From positions 1,314 through 65,313 of the forward strand of contig JAFGQU010000004.1 in the NCBI GenBank assembly GCA_016935525.1: a DNA stretch of 64,000 nt, read 5' to 3'. The notes below the pieces were generated by a model. That model saw nothing but the letters and a program-made list of their open reading frames with translations, made no database searches and was not told the origin of the DNA. This stretch comes from Candidatus Omnitrophota bacterium (lineage in GTDB: Bacteria > Omnitrophota > Gorgyraeia > Duberdicusellales > 4484-171). The translations under genes were made by a program, and so were the position numbers. Below, one piece after another: positions 1,935-60,165 of this stretch (position 1 is the first letter of the stretch; each line of letters opens with the position of its first letter).

Positions 1935-4217
1935 TCAACCGGACAACTTCACCGTACGTAATCGAAGAGCGTTACCGATCACCGAAACCGAACTGAAACT
2001 CATCGCGGCACCGGCAATCATCGGATTCAACAATAATCCTAAAAAAGGATAGAGTATACCGGCCGCGACCGGGATACCCAGCGCGTTATAGATAAACGCA
2101 AAAAACAGGTTCTGACGGATATTACGCATCACCGCCCGGCTTAAAGTTAACGCGTTCACGATACCGGTTAAATCGCCTTTTACCAAAGTAATCCCGGCGC
2201 TTTCGATAGCGACATCCGTTCCGGTCCCCATCGCCACGCCGACTTCAGCTTCGGCTAACGCCGGCGCGTCGTTGATCCCGTCGCCGGCGGCCATAACGAA
2301 CGCGCCTTCTCGTTTCAACTTTTTCACGATATCCTGTTTATCTTTCGGTTCAAGACCCGCATAGACTTCAGTGATACCTAATTCTTCAGCGATCGCCCGG
2401 GCAGTTTTTTGATTATCACCGGTCACCATGACGATCTTGAGTCCCATCTTATGTAACGCATCAATCGCACCCGGTGTCGTTTCTTTTATAGGGTCAGCGA
2501 CACTAAGTATCCCGGCTATCCGCTCTGCGACCGCGACCCAGATAACCGTTTCGGCTTTCTCCTGAAGCTGGACGGCTTTCTTTTTCAGTTCTTCGGGCAG
2601 ACCTATTCCGGAGCTTTCAATGAATTTTTGTTTCCCCAGAAAGACAGCCTTGCCGTTCAGCGCACCTTTCACTCCACCGCCGGTTACGGACTGAAAATCA
2701 TCAATCGGGTCTAATTCGGCCCCTTTCTCTTTCGCATGTGCAACAACGGCGCGCGCGAGGGGATGTTCACTGCTTTGTTCAAGAGAAGCCGCAACATTCA
2801 ACAATGCCGGTTCAATCCACCCGTCGGCGGTAATCACCGTCTTTACGTGCGGTTTCCCGGCAGTCAACGTGCCGGTCTTATCGGTAAGGAGATGGGTAAC
2901 TTTTTCGCACTTCTCGATCGCTTCGGCATTTTTGATCAATATTCCCGATTGCGCGCCGCGGCCGACACCGACCATGACCGATATCGGTGTTGCCAATCCT
3001 AACGCGCAGGGACAGGCAATGATCAGGACCGAAATCGCGCTGACCAACGCGTACGCTAAAGCCGGCCGGGGACCAAATACAAACCATACGATAAAGGCGA
3101 CAACAGCACAGGCCAGTACCGCGGGAACAAAATAACCGGAAACCTTATCGGCAAGGGTTTGAATCGGAGCGCGGCTGCGTTGCGCCTGGGCTACCATATC
3201 CACGATCTGGGAAAGTAATGTTTCCGACCCGACCTTTTCGGTACGCATGACGAACGTGCCGGTCTGGTTCACGGTCGCGCCGATGACCCGGTCACCTTCC
3301 TTTTTAGTCACCGGAAGAGGTTCGCCGGAGATCATCGATTCATCGACCGTGCTTTTTCCTTCAATAATGATACCATCTAAAGGAACTTTTTCGCCGGGAC
3401 GTACCCGCAACATATCGCCTTTTTGTACCTCTTCGATAGCGACCTCTTCTTCTTTACCGTCACTAATACGATGCGCACCTTTGGCGGCAAGGCCGAGTAA
3501 CGCTTTGATCGCTTGTCCCGTCCGCGTACGGGCCCGCGCCTCCAGAAGCTGGCCGAGAAGTACCAATACGGTAATAACTGTCGCAGCTTCAAAATAGAGG
3601 CCGATCTCGCCGGCCTGCTTCAATGACGCAGGGAAAATACCGGGAAACAATACCGCCAGAGCGCTGAACCCGTATGCCGCGCCCACACCCATCGCGATCA
3701 AAGTGAACATATTCGGGCTTTTATGTAAGATCGAACGCCAAGCTTTTACAAAAAAAATGCTGCCGGACCAGAACACGACCGGAGTCGCCAGAATAAACTG
3801 GACCCAACGGGAAAATCCGGAAGGGATAACTGTTCGTAGATCAAAGCCCGGGATCATCTCGCCCAGAGCAAGGATGAAAACAGGTAATGTTAAGGTCAGT
3901 CCGATCCAGAATCTATGAAATAATGACCGTGTTTCCCGGTTATCGTTTTCGTCTGCGCCGGCGACGTTTTTTAGTTCAAGATGCATACCGCATTTCGGAC
4001 AATCGCCGGGAGTATCCTGTTCGATCTCAGGATGCATCGGACAGGTATAAATACCGGTATCGACCCTATCGCCGGACGGACGGCTCTTATGTAAGAACTT
4101 GTCCTGACATTTTTGACTGCAGAAAAAATAGGTTTTACCGTCTTTTTCTGATCTCAACGAATTCTGCTCATTTACCGCCATACCACAAATAGGGTCTTTA
4201 GTCATATTTTTCACCAC
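1935..4217 (-). CDS. copA: Copper(I)-translocating P1B-type ATPase with N-terminal TRASH/YHS-like and CPMHPE metal-binding motifs.
   Basis: Motifs found: [24 protein letters not shown], the transmembrane CPC motif ([13 protein letters not shown]), DKTGTLT, TGDN and GDGINDAP. Confidence 0.9.
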
Positions 4218-11358: not shown

Positions 11359-11787
11359 TTAAACCGTTTTAATCCATCCCTCGATTGTTTCCTTGATTTT
11401 ATCTCTTACGATCCTGGTTTTCGCTAATTTTTCCTGGGGTGAACCCTGAAAACTCGAGGGATCGGCGAATCCCCAGTGAAGCATCCGGAGCGTATTAGGA
11501 AAAATCGGGCATTTCTGCGACTGCGATTCATCACATACGGTGATGACGTAATGGTACCGTTTACCCTGTTTGTAGAAATCGAACGCGCTTTTGGTCTTAT
11601 TCCCGGAAATATCGATGCCGATCTCTTTCATGACCTCGACCGCTACCGGGTTCAACCTACCCGGTTCAAGGCCGGCGCTTTCGACTTCAAACCGGTCGCC
11701 GGCAAGCTGTTTTAAAAAAGCCTCCGCCATCTGGCTGCGGGCCGAATTATGCACACAGACAAATAAAACCTTCAATTTATCACTCAT
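11359..11787 (-). CDS. arsC: Arsenate reductase of the LMW-PTP/thioredoxin-coupled family.
   Basis: [15 protein letters not shown] contains the CX5R P-loop. Downstream cysteines are in the expected context. Confidence 0.85.
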
Positions 11788-11805
11788 AAGATCTCCTCCT
11801 TCTTT

Positions 11806-12015
11806 TTATTTAATGTACAATTCGGTAAGGATAAACATTAATAACGCTATAATAGATAATATTCCAACAACCAGATATCCTTGAACCAGATTATCTTTAA
11901 TTGGACACTCGCATTCTTTATTGTCACATTTTCTGGATTTCCACATAAAATACCTGTAAATGCCCAAGAAAAAAAGAACAGATACGACGGATTGAATCAA
12001 TATTTTAATATTCAT
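11806..12015 (-). CDS. Small two-TM membrane protein with an inter-helix Cys cluster (CDNKECECP), sitting in the ars operon.
   Basis: Internal start MNIKIL is preceded by GGAGG 8 nt upstream. The longer track start at 12036 is less likely. The Cys-rich loop lies between two hydrophobic helices. Confidence 0.35.
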
Positions 12016-12157
12016 GGTTCTGACCTCCGCTAACATGGTTACCTGTACTCGAGATAAAAAGACAACAAGGTCCCGACTTGCCTCGTTCAGGAGAAGACAG
12101 CAATGCAGACACTAACAACCCCGCCACAACAAGGATGTATTTAAACCACATTTTCAT
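12005..12157 (-). CDS. Small (50 aa) secreted or membrane peptide with a signal-peptide-like N-terminus and a CC motif. Below the ORF-track size cut-off.
   Basis: Translation is [50 protein letters not shown]. It lies between ACR3 and the small membrane protein and overlaps the latter out of frame. RBS is weak. Confidence 0.2.
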   Translation of the reverse strand: MKMWFKYILVVAGLLVSALLSSPERGKSGPCCLFISSTGNHVSGGQNHEY

Positions 12158-12179
12158 GTTTAAACCCCGTTAGAGAATT

Positions 12180-13364
12180 TCATCTTCGAGCGTTGGTCTT
12201 CTCTAACGGGGTAAACCAATATTGTGTATTAAGACAGAATTTAACAAGCATCAACATTACCGGAACCTCAATGAGAACCCCAACTACGGTCGCCAGAGCC
12301 GCTCCGGATGACAGGCCGAATAACATTGTCGCGGTAGCGATAGCAACTTCAAAATGGTTGCTTGCCCCGATCATGGCCGACGGCGCCGCGTCTTCATAAC
12401 TCAATTTTATTTTTTTCGCCAGCCAGTACGTAATCGCGAATATTAAACAAGTCTGTATAAAAAGCGGTATCGCGATCCACAATATCGTCAACGGTTGAGA
12501 AAGGATAATCTCACCTTTAAACGAAAATAAAAGGACAAGCGTTACCAATAACGCTGTTATTGAGACCGGCGCGAGAACGTGCAGGAACTTCTCGTTAAAC
12601 CATTCAATCCCTTTAGAACCGATGATCCATTTTCTTGAAAAATAACCGGCGATAAGCGGCAGCGCGACATAAATCGCGATAGACAGCAACAACGCCTGCC
12701 AGGGAACCGGCATACGCCCGATTCCAAGAAGAAAGCCTCCCAGGACACCGTACAGCAAAAGCATTGTCAAAGAATTGATCGCGACCATGACCAGAGTATG
12801 TCCGTCATTTCCTTTGGATAAATATCCCCACACCAGCACCATCGCCGTGCACGGCGCGATACCAAGCAAAATACACCCGGCAAAATAACTTCGCCATAAC
12901 GGGACCTGTAGCATTTTCATCCCTTCATGAAAAACTACTCTTCCTGAGCCGTGAATAGAGCCCAGGACCCAATCCGCGCCGGGAGGAAGTTTCACGAAAT
13001 CTACCGCTTCCGGTCCGATCAGGCCTTTAAACAATACCCCCAAAAACAAAAACGCGATACCGTACATGGTAAACGGCTTTATCGCCCAGTTCACAAATAA
13101 AGTCAACCCGACCGGCTTCGGGGATTTTCCCGCTTTGATGACTTCCGCGAAATCAATTTTTACCATAATGGGATACATCATAAAAAACAGACATACTGCG
13201 ATCGGAATGGAAACCACCGGAGCGCCGCTCACATTTATGGCAAAGCTATCAAGCGCCTTAGCAACACCGGGTGCCATTTTCCCCAGCAGTATTCCGGCAC
13301 CGATGCAGGCAATCACCCATACGGTCAGATATTTCTCAAAAAACCCTAAACTTCTTTCAGCCAT
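12180..13364 (-). CDS. acr3: Arsenite efflux permease of the ACR3 family.
   Basis: [10 protein letters not shown]-terminal signature. Ten-TM profile and the correct length. Confidence 0.85.
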
Positions 13365-13661
13365 TTACTTCTCCTTAAATTTACAACAACCGCCTTCAAT
13401 CTTTATTGCCTTAATATTCACTAACGCGTCGGCTATTTTTTTATGCGCTGATTCTAATATACGGGATATGGTTGAACGATGAACTTTCATCTTCTTTGCC
13501 ACTTGCATTTGAGTTAAACCTTCAAGATGAGAAAGCCGTATCGCTTCAAATTCGTCTATTGTCATATACACACCATCTAATTTATTCAAAGGTTTACACT
13601 GGGGACGAAAACACCTCTCTCCCGGCTCGCATTTCACCCATCGTGTTTTTTTCGGCCTCAT
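13365..13661 (-). CDS. DUF134/UPF0251 predicted DNA-binding protein with an N-terminal Cys motif. It occupies the regulator position of the ars operon.
   Basis: MRPKKTRWVKCEPGERCFRPQCKP..LTQMQVAKKMKVHRSTISRIL shows the sigma-70 region-4-like HTH typical of DUF134. Its stop abuts the ACR3 start. Confidence 0.6.
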   Translation of the reverse strand: MRPKKTRWVKCEPGERCFRPQCKPLNKLDGVYMTIDEFEAIRLSHLEGLTQMQVAKKMKVHRSTISRILESAHKKIADALVNIKAIKIEGGCCKFKEK

Positions 13662-13787
13662 CGGTCACCTCCTATAATGCACATATGTGCATTATAGTTT
13701 AATACCCGCGCCCGGGACCGTCAATAGAAAATCCTCATTATTTTTTTCGGCCAAAGAAAGATCAATGAATAAATTTTGGGCAGGATT

Positions 13788-14423
13788 TTAATAGGTACGC
13801 TTAAACTGAATCATGTAGCTGTGCCCCAGATCAGTGATGCCGGTCTTTTCAAAGCCATACTCTTTCATAGCTTTTTCGACTTCTTGAGGCGGCACGCGTA
13901 TCTCAAGGGGCGGGCCGAACCCGGTTTCTTCTTTTTTAAACTCGATAATCGCAAGCTTACCCCCGGGTTTAATGATCCGGACGAGCTCATTTAACAGGGT
14001 ACCTGTATCTCCGGATAAATCTAATCCGTGAAGGACCTGGGCGATAAAACATACATCGATACTTTTATCCTCAAACGGCAAGGAAGAAGATATATCCGAC
14101 GTTATCCCTTTTACATTATGCAATTTCGCAGTGTGAGCCTTGCCGGTTACGATCGCAATCACTTCTTCCCACTGATCGAGAGCATATACCGTGCCGGAAG
14201 GGCCGACGATCTTTGCCGCTTCCAGTGAATAATCGCCCGCGCCACACCCCAGATCAAGAAAAGAACATCCTTCTTTAAGAGCAAGCGCAGCAAAAACACG
14301 TTCAGTATCGTACCGATTGAAACTGCTTATCCCCTGTTTCTGCCGTTCGATACCGCCGTGGTCGTGTTCGTGGCGAAGCCTGTTTTTATCTTTCATAGCA
14401 TCATCCCCCTCAGGTAACCGCAC
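13788..14423 (-). CDS. Class I SAM-dependent methyltransferase (type 11) with a His-rich N-terminus. First gene of the ars operon.
   Basis: Motif I is LDLGCGAGDY. The N-terminus carries HEHDHGG. Not a canonical ArsM in length or Cys pattern. Confidence 0.6.
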   Translation of the reverse strand: MRLPEGDDAMKDKNRLRHEHDHGGIERQKQGISSFNRYDTERVFAALALKEGCSFLDLGCGAGDYSLEAAKIVGPSGTVYALDQWEEVIAIVTGKAHTAKLHNVKGITSDISSSLPFEDKSIDVCFIAQVLHGLDLSGDTGTLLNELVRIIKPGGKLAIIEFKKEETGFGPPLEIRVPPQEVEKAMKEYGFEKTGITDLGHSYMIQFKRTY

Positions 14424-15177
14424 CTGGCAACCTACGCGGTTGCCAGGTAATTACTCATCATCAACATCAAAAATAAGACTTTTTATTTTTGCTAACTCCC
14501 GCTGATAAGAAATCCTGTCTGCAACGAAATCCCGATATATTTTGGGACACATCTGAAATAAATCGCTGTATTCACAAATTTTTTCCGTATCCTTATCAAA
14601 AGCGATATATTCCCTATACGAAGATGGTTCCCATTCACAAAGATTCTCTACAAGACAAGCTGTCGTCGGATTGAGATGGATATACCGGGTTAAATGCAAC
14701 AATTGTTCATCGTTTTCTACTAAAACTTTTTTGAAACGACTTTCCCATAGTGGCCCTTTTCTATTATGTTTTGTATTAAAATAACGCGTATAGCTGTTAA
14801 GAATATTATTCATAAAATTTGATATTCCGTTATCTGCCACTTGTTTCAGTATTAAATGGATATGAGTAGGCATAAAACAATAAGCAATAATCTTTACTAT
14901 TTTTTTGTGAGCATCAAGTATCTCTTTGTTTCTTTCCGTATCATTTGCCGCGCGATTGAACTTGCTAAAACTAATAGCTCTATGCTGATATCTATAATAT
15001 CCTATCATTCTCCTCATACGCAGGTAATCACACTCATTATGGAATATTTCGAATTTTGCAATAGTGCGTGAATATACATGATATATTTGCCCTGTCGTTA
15101 ACATTTCAACTTTGTTCGTACGCATTGATTGTGTCCTCTACTCACCTCTGGCAACCGCGTAGGTTGCCAGAGGTGAG
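14422..15177 (-). mobile_element. IS200-like/REP-associated tyrosine transposase (RAYT) element bounded by inverted REP-like hairpins.
   Basis: Hairpin 14422..14448 is acctggcaacc-tacgc-ggttgccaggt. Hairpin 15141..15177 is ctcacctctggcaacc-gcgta-ggttgccagaggtgag. They are mutual reverse complements and immediately flank the Y1 transposase gene. Confidence 0.65.
14451..15125 (-). CDS. HUH-Y1 transposase of the IS200-like family (RAYT-like, 224 aa).
   Basis: The HuH motif is HIHLIL. The catalytic Tyr region is RYIHLNP. YHVYSR and GPLWESRF are typical of PF01797. Confidence 0.7.
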   Translation of the reverse strand: MRTNKVEMLTTGQIYHVYSRTIAKFEIFHNECDYLRMRRMIGYYRYQHRAISFSKFNRAANDTERNKEILDAHKKIVKIIAYCFMPTHIHLILKQVADNGISNFMNNILNSYTRYFNTKHNRKGPLWESRFKKVLVENDEQLLHLTRYIHLNPTTACLVENLCEWEPSSYREYIAFDKDTEKICEYSDLFQMCPKIYRDFVADRISYQRELAKIKSLIFDVDDE

Positions 15178-15271: not shown

Positions 15272-16171
15272 TTAGTAAGTCTTTACGGTCTCCAAACCGG
15301 TCAGCCCCTTCGCTACGAGCCAGGCAACGAGAAAGGTCAGAGCTACACCGATGAGTCCGGCAAGACCGGTCGCCAGCATCTCATTACTGATTGCCGAAAC
15401 AGTATAATCCGGCAGAGGGCTGACGAATGCCGGAGCAGATTCGTGGAGAAAACTGTATTTTTCCGCGACCCATTCCAGCCCGTCCGGCAGGCCGCTGGCA
15501 AACGGGCTTAACAGAGTTGCAATGATTCCCGATGCAATAAGCGGGACTGTAACCGACCGTCTTTGCGAAACCGCCGTTACTTCGAAACGTAACGCCGCGC
15601 ATACGGCGACAGTGATCAACGCTTCCCCTATACCGATAAAGGCGTGCGTCGAAAGCATCGCGCCGGCAACCTGGAAGAACCCGATCGTTCCGGAAAGAGC
15701 AAGTTCGATACTGCAGACCAGAGCGGCAAGCATCACCGCACACCACGCCGCTATACCTACGCGCGCAACACTGTCTCGATTTCTGTTCAATGCCGCGTAG
15801 ATCAATCCGCCTAACCCGGCGCCGATAATCGCCATGTTAAGGATATTCGCTCCCAGCACCGTAAATCCGCCGTCGGCAAATACCAGGCATTGAATAGTTA
15901 CCACAAGCGCCATCGAGAGTACCCCGAACGGGATTCCCAACAAACTTGAAGCCAGTACTCCTCCCAGCAGATGGCCGCTCGTTCCGCCGTTGATCGGAAA
16001 ATTCATCATCTGACCGGCAAAGATCAACGCGGTAATCGCGGCAAACTTAGCGGACTGCGGTTTCGTTTTTGACCGAAACGCGAAGAACGCGGCCAGACCG
16101 ACTCCCAGAGCGCTGACTACGGCCGTCACCGGACAGATCGTTCCGTTTAACATTTCATTCGGTATATGCAT
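15272..16171 (-). CDS. cbiM: ECF-type Ni/Co transporter substrate component CbiM/NikM, possibly an M-N fusion.
   Basis: The N-terminus MHIPNEML matches the MHIxDG-type CbiM start. About eight TM helices. NikR lies nearby. Confidence 0.7.
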   Translation of the reverse strand: MHIPNEMLNGTICPVTAVVSALGVGLAAFFAFRSKTKPQSAKFAAITALIFAGQMMNFPINGGTSGHLLGGVLASSLLGIPFGVLSMALVVTIQCLVFADGGFTVLGANILNMAIIGAGLGGLIYAALNRNRDSVARVGIAAWCAVMLAALVCSIELALSGTIGFFQVAGAMLSTHAFIGIGEALITVAVCAALRFEVTAVSQRRSVTVPLIASGIIATLLSPFASGLPDGLEWVAEKYSFLHESAPAFVSPLPDYTVSAISNEMLATGLAGLIGVALTFLVAWLVAKGLTGLETVKTY

Positions 16172-16198
16172 ACCCCACCTCCTTTAATTCCACATGGT

Positions 16199-16939
16199 TC
16201 ATAATGCAATAGTTATCCCGTAGGTAACTTGTAAATCGAAATCGGCACGGGACATTCCGGTACCCACGCCAAGGTCCAAAGTTATCGTGTCGGCAATCGC
16301 ATAATTGAATCCGAACAATATCGCGCACACATTATCATTAAACTCTCTTTTTAATACGGTTTCTCCGACAACTTCACCGACAAGATTGAATTTCTCGTTT
16401 AACGCATATTCGAACGCCAATCCATACGTAAAGCCGTCTTCATTATCCTCTTCCTCGAAATCCTTGCGAAACGCGTATCCGATATTGAGATGCGCGGTGA
16501 ACGGTTCAAATGTTTTTGAAAAAACGCACGCGAGCGAATATTCCGGCCTCCCGGCCCCCACTCCTCTTTCATCGTTTCCCGATTCCGACATATACCCAAA
16601 CACCAAAGCACTATCGGGAAAGGACCCTTTCTCTTTTACCAGGTTCCATTTCAGAGACCCGCCCACGTCCGCAAACCCGTCGGAGTCACTCTCTTCTTTC
16701 GCATCGATAAAGATGTAAGGAACCTCCACCGCCGCGTCCAGGGTATCCCCCACGCCGAAGGTCAAAACAAGACCCATCTCGGTTTCATTATCAAATCCCT
16801 TGACATGTTCGATACCATATTCGATCTCAATATTTCCTCTGCCTACCGTCCCGGCATCGTTGACCGATAACGGCCGGGCCGCAAAGACCGTAACAGGAAA
16901 TATAACCGTCCCCACGATTATACTTACCATCTTTTTCAT
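16199..16939 (-). CDS. Small outer-membrane beta-barrel protein with a signal peptide, sitting between nikR and nikM.
   Basis: Signal peptide MKKMVSIIVGTVIFPVTVFA. Alternating amphipathic beta-strand pattern rich in G, Y, F and D. Confidence 0.4.
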   Translation of the reverse strand: MKKMVSIIVGTVIFPVTVFAARPLSVNDAGTVGRGNIEIEYGIEHVKGFDNETEMGLVLTFGVGDTLDAAVEVPYIFIDAKEESDSDGFADVGGSLKWNLVKEKGSFPDSALVFGYMSESGNDERGVGAGRPEYSLACVFSKTFEPFTAHLNIGYAFRKDFEEEDNEDGFTYGLAFEYALNEKFNLVGEVVGETVLKREFNDNVCAILFGFNYAIADTITLDLGVGTGMSRADFDLQVTYGITIAL

Positions 16940-17098
16940 CCTTCCCCTCCTTGTTGTTACCTTTTAATAAATCGTAACACCTAAAATCAAAAAAAATTAG
17001 CTTCCCCTCTGTGCATACAAACACGGCTCTCTCAGTCGAGGAAGCTTCGTTGCAATCAAGTTATTTCGGCCATGCGATAGATGAGAAAGAACTCACAA

Positions 17099-17512
17099 TT
17101 ATTTGCCCGAATATACGCCACTCGCCACCAACTGTCCATGCTTCATCCCTTTTATCCCGATCAGTTTATCGGCCAGTTCTTTTAACTTCCTCGCTTTACC
17201 TTTTAACGCGATGATCTCCAGACAATTATGATGGTCAAGATGGACATGCTGGACCGACAATACCAGTTCCTGATACTGGTGCTGGATATCGATCGATCTG
17301 TTCAGAAGGTCTCGTTTATGATGATCATAGACCAGGACTGCACATCCGGCAACTTCCCGGTTATGTTCCCAGGCTAAAGATACGAGGTTGTTATTGATAA
17401 GAAAACGTATCGCCTGGGACCGGTTGGGGAATTTATGCCCGGAGACGAACGCGTCAAGTTTTTTTAACAGGCCCTCTTCCAGCGATACTCCGAATCTTTT
17501 TACTTTTTTCAT
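17099..17512 (-). CDS. nikR: Nickel-responsive regulator NikR (ribbon-helix-helix plus metal-binding domain).
   Basis: MKKVKRFGVSLEEGLLKKLDAFV..RSQAIRFLI is the RHH signature. The C-domain carries His/Cys residues HHxR..H..H..C. Confidence 0.8.
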   Translation of the reverse strand: MKKVKRFGVSLEEGLLKKLDAFVSGHKFPNRSQAIRFLINNNLVSLAWEHNREVAGCAVLVYDHHKRDLLNRSIDIQHQYQELVLSVQHVHLDHHNCLEIIALKGKARKLKELADKLIGIKGMKHGQLVASGVYSGK

Positions 17513-52062: not shown

Positions 52063-52365
52063 TTATTTCACTAATACCAGGAGCATTTTGAATCTTTCGG
52101 GCGCGTGGAGACTGTGGGGCTTATGGGCCGGCATAACGATCATCTGGCCCTCTACCGCCTTATGCACTTCTTTGTCAATGGTGATCTCGGCGCACCCGTC
52201 TAAAATATACACTAACGCGTCAAACGGCGCGGTATGTTCGCTTAATCCCTGGCCTTTATCGAACGCGAATACCGTGACGGTGCCGGTCGTTTTTTTGATG
52301 ATCTCTTTACTCACGACCGCGCCGGCCTGATAACTTACCAGATCTTTTAGATTCTCCGCATTCAT
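52063..52365 (-). CDS. Cupin-domain protein.
   Basis: Two-motif cupin layout (G(X)5H..E and H..H) in a small beta-barrel. Confidence 0.55.
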   Translation of the reverse strand: MNAENLKDLVSYQAGAVVSKEIIKKTTGTVTVFAFDKGQGLSEHTAPFDALVYILDGCAEITIDKEVHKAVEGQMIVMPAHKPHSLHAPERFKMLLVLVK

Positions 52366-52475
52366 ATTATTCCTTTCTTTTTTCGTCTGTGAAATGTGCT
52401 GCGCTTTTCTTACGAAAAAGCCATAGTCACACGTTTATTAAATCCTATCAGCCTTACAGGTTACCGAAGACGGAT

Positions 52476-57627: not shown

Positions 57628-58236
57628 TCATCTACTCTCGATAACAAACACTTCCTGAATATCGTTAGAATACATTTTCGTCATATAATCCCGTGGCGGA
57701 CAATATTCCTGTAATTGCGACAAAGAGGAGTAATGAGAAGAATGAGACTTTCCTTTCATCTGATGGATATCGTGGATCAATTGCATCCCTTTTTTGGTGA
57801 AATCGCTCAATATACACTTACCCTCTCGTCGCAACACCCGCAGCGCTTCAGTAAGGACTTTCCCGGGAGAATCGAAATGATGGATGGAATTTACGCAAAA
57901 TATAGTCTTAAAAGTGGCATCGGGAAAAGGCATGCTCTCGGCATTGTAAATACGGAAATCGACTTTACCCCTTAAAGGTAATGACCGTATCAACCTTTGA
58001 GCGAAATCTTGTTCCGCGCGCGAGATATCGATACTGATCAACGAGTAACCTTGTTGGGCAAGTTCAAGAGTCATATACCCTTTTCCCGTACCGATCTCCA
58101 ATATCGGTTCATAAAACGGAAATGCCGATTCAAAGATAAATTTACGCTGGGATTCGATATCGTAACCGTGCTCCTTATAAAATTCTATTCGTTCCACATA
58201 TCGTTGATACTGCTGACTGGTCACCTCAATTTTCAT
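57628..58236 (-). CDS. Class I SAM-dependent methyltransferase.
   Basis: ILEIGTGKGYMT is motif I. Confidence 0.6.
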   Translation of the reverse strand: MKIEVTSQQYQRYVERIEFYKEHGYDIESQRKFIFESAFPFYEPILEIGTGKGYMTLELAQQGYSLISIDISRAEQDFAQRLIRSLPLRGKVDFRIYNAESMPFPDATFKTIFCVNSIHHFDSPGKVLTEALRVLRREGKCILSDFTKKGMQLIHDIHQMKGKSHSSHYSSLSQLQEYCPPRDYMTKMYSNDIQEVFVIESR

Positions 58237-58299
58237 CGTTTCTCCTCCTGTAGAAAATAATTTCCACCAGAAAAATCAACCCAATAAACCTCGCTGGAT

Positions 58300-58617
58300 T
58301 CAGCATTTTTGCTTATATTGTTCTATTACTGATTTGACCGTGCCGGAGACTCCGGTAATCATCTTCACTCCGGCAGCTCCAAGGGTATTAGAGGCATTCG
58401 GCCCTACATTACCGGTAAATACTATGAGCACTCCTTTTTGCGCGACCAGTTGAGCCGGCTGGATGCCGGCTCCGCCGGCGATATTCACATCGGGGTTAGC
58501 CACACCTTCAAAAGAATCGCTTTCGGTATCGGCAAAGATAAAGTAGGCACATCGGCCGAATCGAGGATCAACCTGACTCTCAAGATCATCACCCTGAGCG
58601 GTTACACATATTTTCAT
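58300..58617 (-). CDS. NifX/NifB-like dinitrogenase FeMo-cofactor-domain protein.
   Basis: MKICVTAQG..DPRFGRCAYFIFAD matches PF02579. Confidence 0.65.
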   Translation of the reverse strand: MKICVTAQGDDLESQVDPRFGRCAYFIFADTESDSFEGVANPDVNIAGGAGIQPAQLVAQKGVLIVFTGNVGPNASNTLGAAGVKMITGVSGTVKSVIEQYKQKC

Positions 58618-58726
58618 AATTTCTTCTCTACTGAATGTGAGGGATATTTATTTTTTCGAAAAGGAATGGGCGAGTCATCGCAGGAGACAATGCTCCCCAG
58701 AGACTTCTCAGCGCCGTTGATCCTTT

Positions 58727-59122
58727 TCACTCCTCATGCGAATGATCACATTCGTCTTTTTCCACGCCATATCCTTTTCCTGCCCCGGGTTTACAGAGAC
58801 TTTCTCCGCCTTTTAAAGTGCCGGCAGCAGCTTCCTTCATTATCTCGTCGATCTTACCACGTATCCCCACGACGGTCCGAATACCCGCCTGAACAAACAG
58901 ATCCTGTGCCCGCTGCCCCATCCCTCCGGCGACAATCGCATTGACCCCCTGTTGTTGTAAAAACCGAGGTAAAAATCCGGGATGGTGTCCGGGATTATCA
59001 ATTGTCATCTTATTTACCAGCCGACCATTGTCTATCTCAACAATGGTAAAAGAAGGACAACGGCCAAAATGAGCTGATACATATTCTCCATCTGTAGATA
59101 TCGCAAACTTCAAAATATCCAC
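58727..59122 (-). CDS. NifX/NifB-like domain protein with a C-terminal Cys/His tail.
   Basis: FAISTDGEYVSAHFGRCPSFTIVE. C-terminal CKPGAGKGYGVEKDECDHSHEE. Confidence 0.65.
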   Translation of the reverse strand: MDILKFAISTDGEYVSAHFGRCPSFTIVEIDNGRLVNKMTIDNPGHHPGFLPRFLQQQGVNAIVAGGMGQRAQDLFVQAGIRTVVGIRGKIDEIMKEAAAGTLKGGESLCKPGAGKGYGVEKDECDHSHEE

Positions 59123-59186
59123 CTCCTTACAAATCCCTCCGTTTCGCTCTTAAGAGCGAAACGGAGGGATTGATTATTCTCTTTTT

Positions 59187-59534
59187 TTATTCCTCTTTGG
59201 TCGATTCTAACTCTTTGATACGCTGGTTGATCACATTGATTTCATCCTGCATCGTATGGGCCTCTTCTCTAAGCATTTGACTCTCTTCCTGCCGGCTCAT
59301 ATTTGTAGCGGGGCCATGACCACCATAAGCGTAAGGGGCCGGATACCAACGCCAGCCAAAACCACGCCCCATACCGCGGCCAAAGCCTCTTCCCCTCCCG
59401 CGCCCAGGACCAAACCTTCCCCTCCCAGAGCCAGAGGGCATATGTCCCGGAACGGCATAGCCGGCACAAAAACCTCTTCCTCCTCCAGTCATCGCGCCTT
59501 GGCCAGAAGGACCTGTACCATCAAATCTTGGCAT
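59187..59534 (-). CDS. DUF5320-like Gly/Arg-rich protein.
   Basis: MPRFDGTGPSGQGAMTGGGRGFCAGY N-terminus, RGRG repeats and a C-terminal coiled-coil. Confidence 0.5.
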   Translation of the reverse strand: MPRFDGTGPSGQGAMTGGGRGFCAGYAVPGHMPSGSGRGRFGPGRGRGRGFGRGMGRGFGWRWYPAPYAYGGHGPATNMSRQEESQMLREEAHTMQDEINVINQRIKELESTKEE

Positions 59535-59588
59535 ATTACACCTCCTTTTAATTATTGAAAATCATTTTCAATAATATTTTAAAAAAAA

Positions 59589-60002
59589 TTATACTGTTTT
59601 TTTACGACATTTACCGCACGTTCCGTAAAACTGGATAAGATGTTTTTCTATAGAAAAATCGTACTTTTCCATTAACCCTCTTTCGGTCTTCTCCAGGAGT
59701 TCTTTTTCCTGATCGATAAATTCGGTATAATCGATAACCCGTTTACAACGAGTACAAACCAGATGATGATGATGGCCTTTTTTTACCTGGAATTCTTCGG
59801 CCAACTCATAACGGGCCCGCCGATCGCCGAAATCGAACTTAAACAATACCCCCATATCGGCAAGCAGTTCTAACGTACGGTATACCGTGGTTAACCCGAC
59901 ATGAGGATAACTCTTTTGGACAGCCAGATATATATCTTCGGCACTGAGATGTTTTTCGGTCCCGCTTAATACCTCAAGAATAACCTGCCGGGGCACGGTC
60001 AT
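59589..60002 (-). CDS. Fur-family metalloregulator.
   Basis: Winged HTH, a HHHLVCTRCKRV..CGKC structural Zn site and a regulatory His cluster. Start chosen at MTVPRQ, since the track extends 22 codons further. Confidence 0.75.
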   Translation of the reverse strand: MTVPRQVILEVLSGTEKHLSAEDIYLAVQKSYPHVGLTTVYRTLELLADMGVLFKFDFGDRRARYELAEEFQVKKGHHHHLVCTRCKRVIDYTEFIDQEKELLEKTERGLMEKYDFSIEKHLIQFYGTCGKCRKKTV

Positions 60003-60165
60003 ACGGTACCCGCGCCCTTGAAACTTCGGCTGCCACCAGGATTGTCCTTGTCTACATCTTTTCTGCATATTTACTATTATTGAAAATGGTTTTCATTATC
60101 AATTAAAGTATACCTCCCCTTCCGGGTAGTTGTCAAGATATACTTCTTTTGTTCTCAAGAGAAGA

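Follow-up and report, generated by a model that had tools for sequence, protein, structure and literature searches.

What controls an arsenic-resistance operon that carries no gene for an ArsR-type repressor? The question is raised by a 64,000-nucleotide stretch of contig JAFGQU010000004.1 from a Candidatus Omnitrophota bacterium (assembly GCA_016935525.1, positions 1,314 to 65,313; this whole stretch is called the window below). It contains a compact ars operon, DUF134-acr3-(orfA)-orfB-arsC, whose regulator lies outside the ArsR/SmtB family. The first gene encodes a 98-aa protein of the DUF134 family, and we consider it likely that this protein is an autorepressor of the operon that senses arsenic through thiols. 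To our knowledge, all characterised prokaryotic As(III)-responsive repressors belong to the ArsR/SmtB family.

The DUF134 gene and its arsenic neighbourhood

The original prediction for this region listed six open reading frames (ORFs) on the minus strand, and we found all six where it placed them; the large genes among them lie far above chance ORF expectation. It joined them in one operon. DUF134, ACR3, ORF B and ArsC do belong to it, but a methyltransferase gene lies outside the promoter-defined unit and ORF A is weakly supported. The reported lack of ArsR/SmtB was confirmed for the 64-kb window, where neither tblastn and phmmer with four ArsR-family queries nor an iterated ArsR profile found such a gene. 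The window carries only the inorganic-arsenic pair, ACR3 and ArsC.

The assignment of the first gene product to DUF134 held up in a hidden Markov model (HMM) search, in which PF02001 matched with 73.2 bits (gathering cutoff 27) over residues 2–92 of the 98-position model. The protein had no ArsR-type match in Pfam or NCBIfam and no match to a winged helix of the HTH_5 or HTH_20 type. Comparison by phmmer with four ArsR-family seeds gave E>3, and the iterated ArsR profile search did not recover it.

We scanned one genome per species and obtained at least 582 loci with relatives of this gene, of which the best 80, most of them from Omnitrophota, were kept (homolog identity at least 67%); their ORFs were annotated with seed proteins, and proximity to ArsR was judged within ±7 kb. 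The DUF134 gene came first at 80 of the 80 loci, with same-strand arsenic genes directly after it and often overlapping. The next gene encoded ArsP or ACR3 at all but three loci (L044, L081 and L074), where ArsM or ArsF-ArsG followed DUF134 and ACR3 came after. Co-occurrence with arsenic permeases is thus essentially complete for this clade, and DUF134 occupies the regulator slot that the prediction had given it; an absence of arsenic-linked co-occurrence, which would have refuted that view, is therefore clearly contradicted by these genomes. The same arrangement appeared in independent metagenome contexts, and the contexts of single homologs were DUF134-ArsP_1-MTase-Thioredoxin_3-(LMWPc), DUF134-ArsP_1-Thioredoxin_3 or DUF134-SBF/ACR3.

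The commonest architecture was DUF134-ArsP-(ArsM)-Trx-x-DsbD-like-ACR3-(ArsC), where Trx denotes thioredoxin. Its middle genes scored 341 bits for ArsM (NCBIfam cutoff 263), 102 for ArsE (62), 116 for ArsF (60) and 284 for ArsG (200). These long-form Omnitrophota operons, with homologs of ArsP_1, ArsM, ArsE, ArsF and ArsG, resemble the organoarsenical modules ArsP, ArsM and ArsEFG of Campylobacter and Shewanella. The modules described in those genera are ArsR-controlled. The short form, DUF134-ACR3-...-ArsC, is found in the window and at L002, L018, L028, L036, L046, L068 and L076.

An ArsR-family gene lay within ±7 kb at just 6 loci by iterated profile search. At two loci from metagenome-assembled genomes labelled Caldisericales (L060 and L061), an SmtB/ArsR-like gene heads a divergent Trx-...-ACR3-ArsC operon opposite DUF134-ArsP. 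The two regulators are therefore able to occur together and might respond to different species, which suggests a division of labour between the two types, perhaps for inorganic versus organic arsenicals.

A conserved palindrome at the promoter

The original prediction looked for the DNA target of DUF134 upstream of position 14423. We found a candidate elsewhere, directly upstream of the DUF134 gene at 13673-13696. In the 126-bp gap between the methyltransferase and DUF134 genes, a consensus scan located the promoter elements TTGACG-17 nt-TAAACT; after them the sequence reads, in order, the palindrome TATAATGCACATATGTGCATTATA, an AGGAGG Shine-Dalgarno sequence and the ATG. The palindrome is centred 23 nt before the start codon, at the start-site region, and abuts or overlaps the -10 box. 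Its 16-bp core, ATGCACATATGTGCAT, is unique in the window, where 0.14 chance occurrences are expected.

The 16-mer palindrome recurs in 79 of 80 non-redundant upstream regions, with its centre 21–32 nt before the ATG, and follows the consensus ATG[C/A]AC-N4-GT[G/T]CAT across the clade; in L060 and L061 it is degenerate (ATGCATACTTATTCA[A/T]). A degenerate form of the motif had 70 matches in 871 kb of locus sequence, and 68 of these stood 15–40 nt upstream of a DUF134 start. Promoter geometry was scored in 71 loci. TTGACA-N16/17-TATAAT-like promoters with at least 10 of 12 consensus matches were present in 61 of them, and the -35 box was a perfect TTGACA in 56. Measured from where the -10 hexamer ends, the 16-mer began at -2 to +6 nt in 70 of the 71 loci and at +9 in the remaining one. 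Since the palindrome lies over the -10 box and start site of a near-consensus promoter, it occupies the classic position for a dimeric repressor.

The window promoter has one peculiarity. A GC-rich stretch, GGTCCCGGGCGCGGG, sits in the -35/-10 spacer (13702-13718) and puts the canonical, operator-fused TATAAT 22 nt from the -35 box, so that TAAACT is the -10 sequence with the better spacing. In close relatives, L001 among them, 17 nt separate the -35 box from TATAAT.

We also compared the palindromes with the proteins encoded beside them. The half-sites fall into three classes, ATGAAC (38 loci), ATGCAC (27) and ATGCAT (7); 72 of the 80 sites are symmetric and 8 asymmetric. In the DUF134 alignment, mutual information with operator class peaks at columns 63, 50, 65, 61, 54 and 53, all within the helix-turn-helix (HTH). 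CAC operators pair with V/I-H61-R62-S63-T-I/V65, AAC operators with I-S61-R62-P63-T-F65 and CAT operators with I-H61-Q62-S63; the three operator variants thus track residues 61–65 of the predicted recognition helix. L038 and L043, which have S63 in an otherwise AAC-like background, conform to this rule by carrying a CAC operator. The co-variation gives strong but not conclusive support to the view that this DUF134 protein reads this site, and we think it highly likely that DUF134 is the DNA-binding regulator of the operon and acts at the palindrome.

Two other explanations of these patterns have to be weighed. The palindrome could form a hairpin in the 5' leader RNA that acts on transcript stability or translation, with compensatory half-site changes that keep the pairing and with an unrelated role for DUF134; the symmetric change from GCAC/GTGC to GAAC/GTTC would indeed preserve a stem. 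A free-varying stem would not be expected to show three sequence classes only, with most of the 16 core positions near-invariant across the phylum, nor to have its class tracked by HTH residues. Because the left arm of the palindrome touches the -10 box or runs into it, most of that arm would be missing from the transcript. No Rfam family matches at the palindrome, and on this ground we rejected it as a known RNA element. Overall we regard a hairpin as extremely unlikely.

Alternatively, a conventional ArsR encoded elsewhere in the genome could regulate the operon, with DUF134 as a co-transcribed passenger. The first-gene position at every locus, the DUF134-specific palindrome and the HTH co-variation would all go unexplained for a passenger, and the window holds no ArsR. 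This alternative draws on the ArsR-like genes near 6 loci and on the range of our view, which covered 64 kb of this genome and ±7 kb in the others, and we give it very little credence.

Cysteines, fold and the proposed arsenic switch

If DUF134 is the regulator, how might it sense arsenic? The protein had been described as having an N-terminal CxxxxC..C motif. It is Cys-rich as claimed, but the real pattern is C11-x5-C17-x4-C22 plus C92-C93. All five cysteines are invariant in 20 diverse homologs. Of 72 locus proteins, 62 have the complete set and all 72 have C93. Full-length homologs of 77–95% identity occur in many uncultured bacteria, the named ones nearly all being Candidatus Omnitrophota.

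Most of the family looks different. An exhaustive search of 1.84 billion representatives gave 3261 DUF134 clusters at 50% identity. Just five score above 110 bits, with lengths of about 100–107 aa, and the ars-linked clade amounts to about 5 of the 3261; the remainder reach at most 98 bits, and most of them are longer. Below the five top-scoring clusters, which are of the ars type, 145 representatives were compared: 95 have Tyr or Phe at position 17 and 120 have Gly at position 22. In generic DUF134 proteins positions 92 and 93 are not Cys. C17, C22, C92 and C93 are therefore gains specific to the ars-linked clade. The family-typical YFKPxG(I/V)P motif is replaced in the window protein by C17-F-R-P-Q-C22-K-P, and the protein belongs to a divergent clade within PF02001.

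Generic DUF134 proteins (UPF0251, COG1342) share with the ars clade the Pfam family, the HTH core and an N-terminal basic segment. They differ in being usually longer, in being fused or adjacent to NifB/NifX-like Nitro_FeMo-Co modules and in having no ars linkage. The out-group control consisted of three plasmid contexts, a second genomic copy and domain fusions. Nitro_FeMo-Co (PF02579) is fused in 6 of 10 long generic representatives, and HypA- or Zn-ribbon-like segments are present in others. Two of the three plasmids carry the generic copy beside NifB/NifX-family genes instead of ars genes, and so does L068. This association with other ligand-binding modules fits a model of a DNA-binding module with an exchangeable sensor.

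We lean towards a joint reading in which the Cys-rich clade would be an unrecognised family of arsenic- or organoarsenical-sensing repressors, non-homologous to ArsR. In the same reading, DUF134/UPF0251 proteins as a whole would be modular one-component regulators with exchangeable sensors (Cys tails here, NifX-like cofactor-binding domains elsewhere), and ORF B a new accessory factor of the ACR3/ArsC pathway, anchored in the membrane and bearing three Cys.

Ars-type and generic paralogs coexist side by side in a single genome of the L068 type. A second DUF134 of the generic type lies directly downstream of ArsC in L068 (9229-9552), L092 (880-1203) and L094 (782-1105); it has YFKPRGIP and no CC pair, and is followed by a methyltransferase gene and a NifX-like gene. 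Generic DUF134 genes are also carried by 198 annotated plasmids (69 from Klebsiella, 57 from Citrobacter, 17 from Escherichia), and many of these plasmids are conjugative. On the Morganella plasmid NZ_CP135145.1 it lies at 52110-52430, followed by a NifB/NifX-family gene and a gene for an SLAC1/TehA-like anion channel. Such plasmid-borne copies offer a culturable way into the wider family. One further protein, P0070 (163 aa, from a 1.1-kb Logan contig), joins an ars-type DUF134 in frame with a fragment of an ArsM-like methyltransferase. We rejected it as a true methyltransferase-DUF134 fusion; the fragment comes from a downstream ArsM-like gene on that contig, and the join is probably an assembly or deletion artefact.

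For the fold we relied on an AlphaFold2 model, with an overall predicted local distance difference test score (pLDDT) of 72. It has a confident core, made up of a strand (30–34), helices 35–46, 51–58 and 62–81 and a second strand (85–89), and Cys-bearing tails on either side. The third helix (62–81) would be the recognition helix. If the two strands pair, as the model implies, they would bring both Cys tails together. The best Foldseek matches were sigma-70 region 4 and DeoR/SorC HTH domains, all with weak E-values, and no ArsR/SmtB protein was among the top 50. We found no solved DUF134 structure, only weak HTH matches. The fold is thus predicted to be a tri-helical HTH like sigma-70 region 4 or DeoR and not an ArsR-like winged helix. 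The closest solved HTH is the B. subtilis DeoR / SorC-family N-terminal DNA-binding domain, the DeoR domain being bound to operator DNA (PDB 7bhy and 8r7y; 36% identity over 39 residues, root-mean-square deviation 0.6 Å, E-values of 0.01–0.04). DeoR is a repressor on a palindromic operator, like the role proposed for DUF134, but DeoR/SorC proteins carry a large effector domain that binds sugar phosphates, and they lack both Cys tails and any arsenic link.

The sigma-70 region 4 domains among the best structural and sequence matches raise the question of whether DUF134 might activate transcription, or assist it as a sigma-like accessory factor, instead of repressing it. The promoters, however, are near-consensus at both -35 and -10 and therefore need no activator. 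The palindrome is at or downstream of the -10 box, over the start site, as befits a repressor; its symmetry implies a dimer and not a sigma factor, and among DNA-bound structures the HTH of the repressor DeoR matches best. We consider an activator very unlikely.

For DUF134 as a repressor we propose the following mechanism. We infer that a DUF134 dimer would bind the palindrome and, by covering the -10 box and the transcription start, would block the operon including its own gene. Trivalent arsenic would be coordinated by the thiolates of C11, C17, C22, C92 and C93 in the flexible tails; the effector here would be As(III), and in the longer ArsP-ArsM-ArsEFG operons perhaps also methyl or aromatic As(III). 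Arsenic-loaded DUF134 would then leave the DNA, allowing ArsC to reduce arsenate and ACR3 to export arsenite, with ORF B and its three-Cys loop probably serving beside them as an accessory membrane protein.

The logic would be that of the ArsR/SmtB repressors (R773 ArsR, A. ferrooxidans ArsR, C. glutamicum ArsR1), in which a small dimeric autorepressor encoded first in the ars operon acts on a promoter inverted repeat. Release by As(III) at flexible Cys thiolates is presumed to be alike. The As(III) sites of ArsR proteins are located in flexible termini and arose several times within the family, and the DUF134 cysteines are likewise a clade-specific acquisition. The two families are nonetheless not homologous. 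DUF134 would have a tri-helical HTH flanked by two short strands in place of a winged helix, and both its Cys pattern (C-x5-C-x4-C...CC) and its operator differ from those of ArsR/SmtB.

The main rival accepts that DUF134 regulates the operon but takes its cysteines for a Zn or Fe-S centre or for disulfides, so that the protein would sense thiol or redox stress and not arsenic directly. In keeping with this, the five conserved cysteines exceed the three needed for an As(III) site, the long operons encode thioredoxin-like ArsE and ArsF and a DsbD-like ArsG, and generic DUF134 is linked to Fe-S- or cofactor-binding NifX-like and MrpORP genes. Yet every gene under DUF134 control is arsenic-specific, four of the cysteines were gained in the ars-linked clade alone, and they sit in flexible tails, a setting shared with the known As(III) sites of ArsR, and not in a folded metal-binding knuckle. 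We judge this rival unlikely, and think that DUF134 probably senses trivalent arsenic directly via its cysteines.

Several observations weigh against an arsenic-sensing DUF134 autorepressor. Besides the possibility that the five cysteines hold Zn or an Fe-S cluster, the Cys tails are modelled at pLDDT below 50, which makes their geometry unusable, and for that reason we claim no binding-site geometry. The operator-HTH co-variation is confounded by phylogeny because the operator classes are largely clades, and L065 breaks the rule by combining S63 with an AAC operator. L060 and L061 have an ArsR-like regulator beside DUF134-ArsP. The 80 loci are the best-scoring relatives and thus represent this clade, not DUF134 as a whole, and every homolog in the ars clade comes from an uncultured organism.

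With these points taken into account, the operon very probably has a thiol-based autorepressor from an unrelated, previously function-less family, and so a new type of arsenic-responsive switch. Full-text literature on DUF134, UPF0251, COG1342, PF02001, Omnitrophota with arsenic, and ArsEFG assigned no function to the family, most subscription journals lying outside this search. There is no curated family for the ars type either; NCBIfam and Pfam labels read DUF134 or hypothetical, and the source annotations were all DUF134 or UPF0251.

If true, this would be a non-homologous replacement of the regulator in one of the most studied resistance operons. It would give a first functional handle on a family of more than 3,000 clusters at 50% identity, also present on enterobacterial and clostridial plasmids, and would explain arsenic gene regulation in Omnitrophota and neighbouring uncultured phyla. 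Annotation pipelines seeking ArsR would return "no regulator" for such operons. The 98-aa protein and its 24-bp site would also form an orthogonal sensor/operator pair for arsenic biosensors.

The remaining genes and the surroundings of the operon

The features of the ars region are collected in Table 1.

Table 1. Coordinates of the ars region in the window
Feature	Position	Strand	Description
DUF134 gene	13365-13661	minus	98 aa; first gene of operon; predicted arsenic-responsive autorepressor; PF02001
ACR3 arsenite efflux permease	12180-13364	minus	394 aa; TIGR00832
ORF A	12005-12157	minus	50 aa, hydrophobic N-terminus, SGPCC motif; possible peptide
ORF B	11806-12015 (12036 as longer ORF end)	minus	69 aa from ATG at 12015; two hydrophobic segments
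ArsC of the low-molecular-weight protein tyrosine phosphatase type, thioredoxin-coupled type	11359-11787	minus	142 aa; PF01451
Class-I S-adenosylmethionine methyltransferase	13788-14423	minus	211 aa; neighbour, judged outside ars operon
ars promoter, sigma-70-type	13696-13724	minus	-35 TTGACG 13724-13719; 17-nt spacer; -10 TAAACT 13701-13696
Predicted operator TATAATGCACATATGTGCATTATA	13673-13696		unstranded; perfect 24-bp palindrome; 16-bp core ATGCACATATGTGCAT at 13677-13692

The ATG of ACR3 directly follows the DUF134 stop codon. ACR3 matches the TIGR00832 equivalog with 380.9 bits (cutoff 282.8), and its translation contains the PCTAMV Cys and NHFE Glu motifs, whose residues in the fourth and ninth transmembrane segments we take to be important for function. 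ArsC is preceded by an AGGAGG Shine-Dalgarno sequence and matches PF01451 (LMWPc) at E=7e-19, but stays below the cutoff of the TIGR02691 equivalog (125.4 versus 174.3 bits). Its redox residues are present, with the CX5R loop C11-VHNSA-R17 plus C85 and C93. From its sequence we class it as an LMWPc family member, but a divergent one.

Between ACR3 and ArsC, two small Cys-containing membrane proteins had been claimed. Conservation in relatives bears out ORF B as a gene; ORF A is conserved in two very close relatives only. The ATG of ORF B overlaps the ORF A stop codon and has a GGAGG Shine-Dalgarno sequence upstream. Its K-C-[DE]-N-K-E-C-x-C-P-I loop (CDNKECECP in the window) is invariant, with three invariant cysteines. 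Four database homologs show 80–100% identity; another sub-lineage (L068 and L092-L094) has versions with 52–55% identity, and in each case the gene directly precedes that for ArsC. Substitutions at the three codon positions number 7/5/25 and 8/5/18, a concentration at the third position that the other frames lack. ORF B is a genuine small membrane protein of narrow distribution, and its task is probably As(III) handling or thiol chemistry together with ACR3 and ArsC. As a short three-Cys protein beside a transporter it recalls the ArsD metallochaperone and FeoB-associated Cys-rich membrane proteins. ArsD uses three cysteines to pass As(III) to an efflux pump. ORF B differs from both in having no sequence similarity to them and no Pfam match, and in being membrane-embedded with two hydrophobic segments.

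ORF A is intact and of the same length in L011; in L010 it has a TGA at codon 4, where an internal start is possible. The alignment is gap-free in these relatives and keeps the SG[PS]CC[LP]F motif. Codon position 2 is the least variable, yet there is no synonymous excess, and the ORF does marginally better than chance. L068-type loci, which form the second lineage with ORF B, lack it, and a search of 5.8 billion predicted proteins returned no counterpart, not even its own sequence. As a coding gene it is therefore weakly supported. Neither ORF A nor ORF B has a Pfam or NCBIfam match at E≤0.01, and at E≤10 a single match appeared, a spurious one to Flu_M2 (E=0.57). We rejected the idea that the two are one frameshifted gene, as the two-frame layout is kept in relatives and L068-type loci have ORF B alone.

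The gene on the other side of the promoter encodes a methyltransferase (Methyltransf_31, E=4e-21) whose start the gene caller places at M10; the His-rich N-terminus attributed to it is there (RLRHEHDHGG). It had been counted as part of the operon and as a candidate ArsM, and neither view survived. Past its stop codon, in the gap before DUF134, come the promoter and operator of the ars operon. At other loci no homolog of it adjoins DUF134 (the distance is 1.9 kb in L090 and 6 kb in L073), and the close relative L015 has no methyltransferase at that position. The ArsM model NF008823 gave 68.9 bits, far below its cutoff of 263, with only the Rossmann core (residues 47–160) aligned. The catalytic Cys of the ArsM motif VISNCVIN aligns with Gln in DVCFIAQVLH, and in the alignment the protein is without the N-terminal Cys pair and the C-terminal Cys regions of ArsM. 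On HMM score, missing cysteines, lack of synteny and promoter position we rejected it as ArsM and as an operon gene; it is a neighbour.

Just upstream of the methyltransferase and the ars operon lies a gene for a REP-associated tyrosine transposase (RAYT, Y1_Tnp; 14451-15125, minus strand). RAYT homologs occur a few kb from DUF134-ars operons in three further genomes (L015 5173-5847, L018 11461-12144 and L026 2496-3158). This proximity may relate to mobility of the ars operon or of an inserted methyltransferase gene.

Metal-homeostasis genes are abundant around the ars region. A nickel/cobalt uptake cluster lies directly upstream (15272-17512, minus strand), with NikR at 17099-17512, an outer-membrane barrel of the Phenol_MetA_deg/DUF5777 type at 16199-16939 and a CbiM-PDGLE fusion at 15272-16171; it ends in a strong terminator with a 13-bp stem (15251-15219). 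A YHS/HMBD P-type ATPase is encoded at 1935-4217. A further minus-strand cluster at 57628-60068 consists of Fur (59589-60068), DUF5320 (59187-59534), two NifX-like ORFs (58727-59122 and 58300-58617) and a 202-aa methyltransferase (57628-58236). The last three resemble the genes that follow the generic, non-ars DUF134 copy in L068, and the Fur-family gene stands in the regulator position, where L068 has the generic DUF134.

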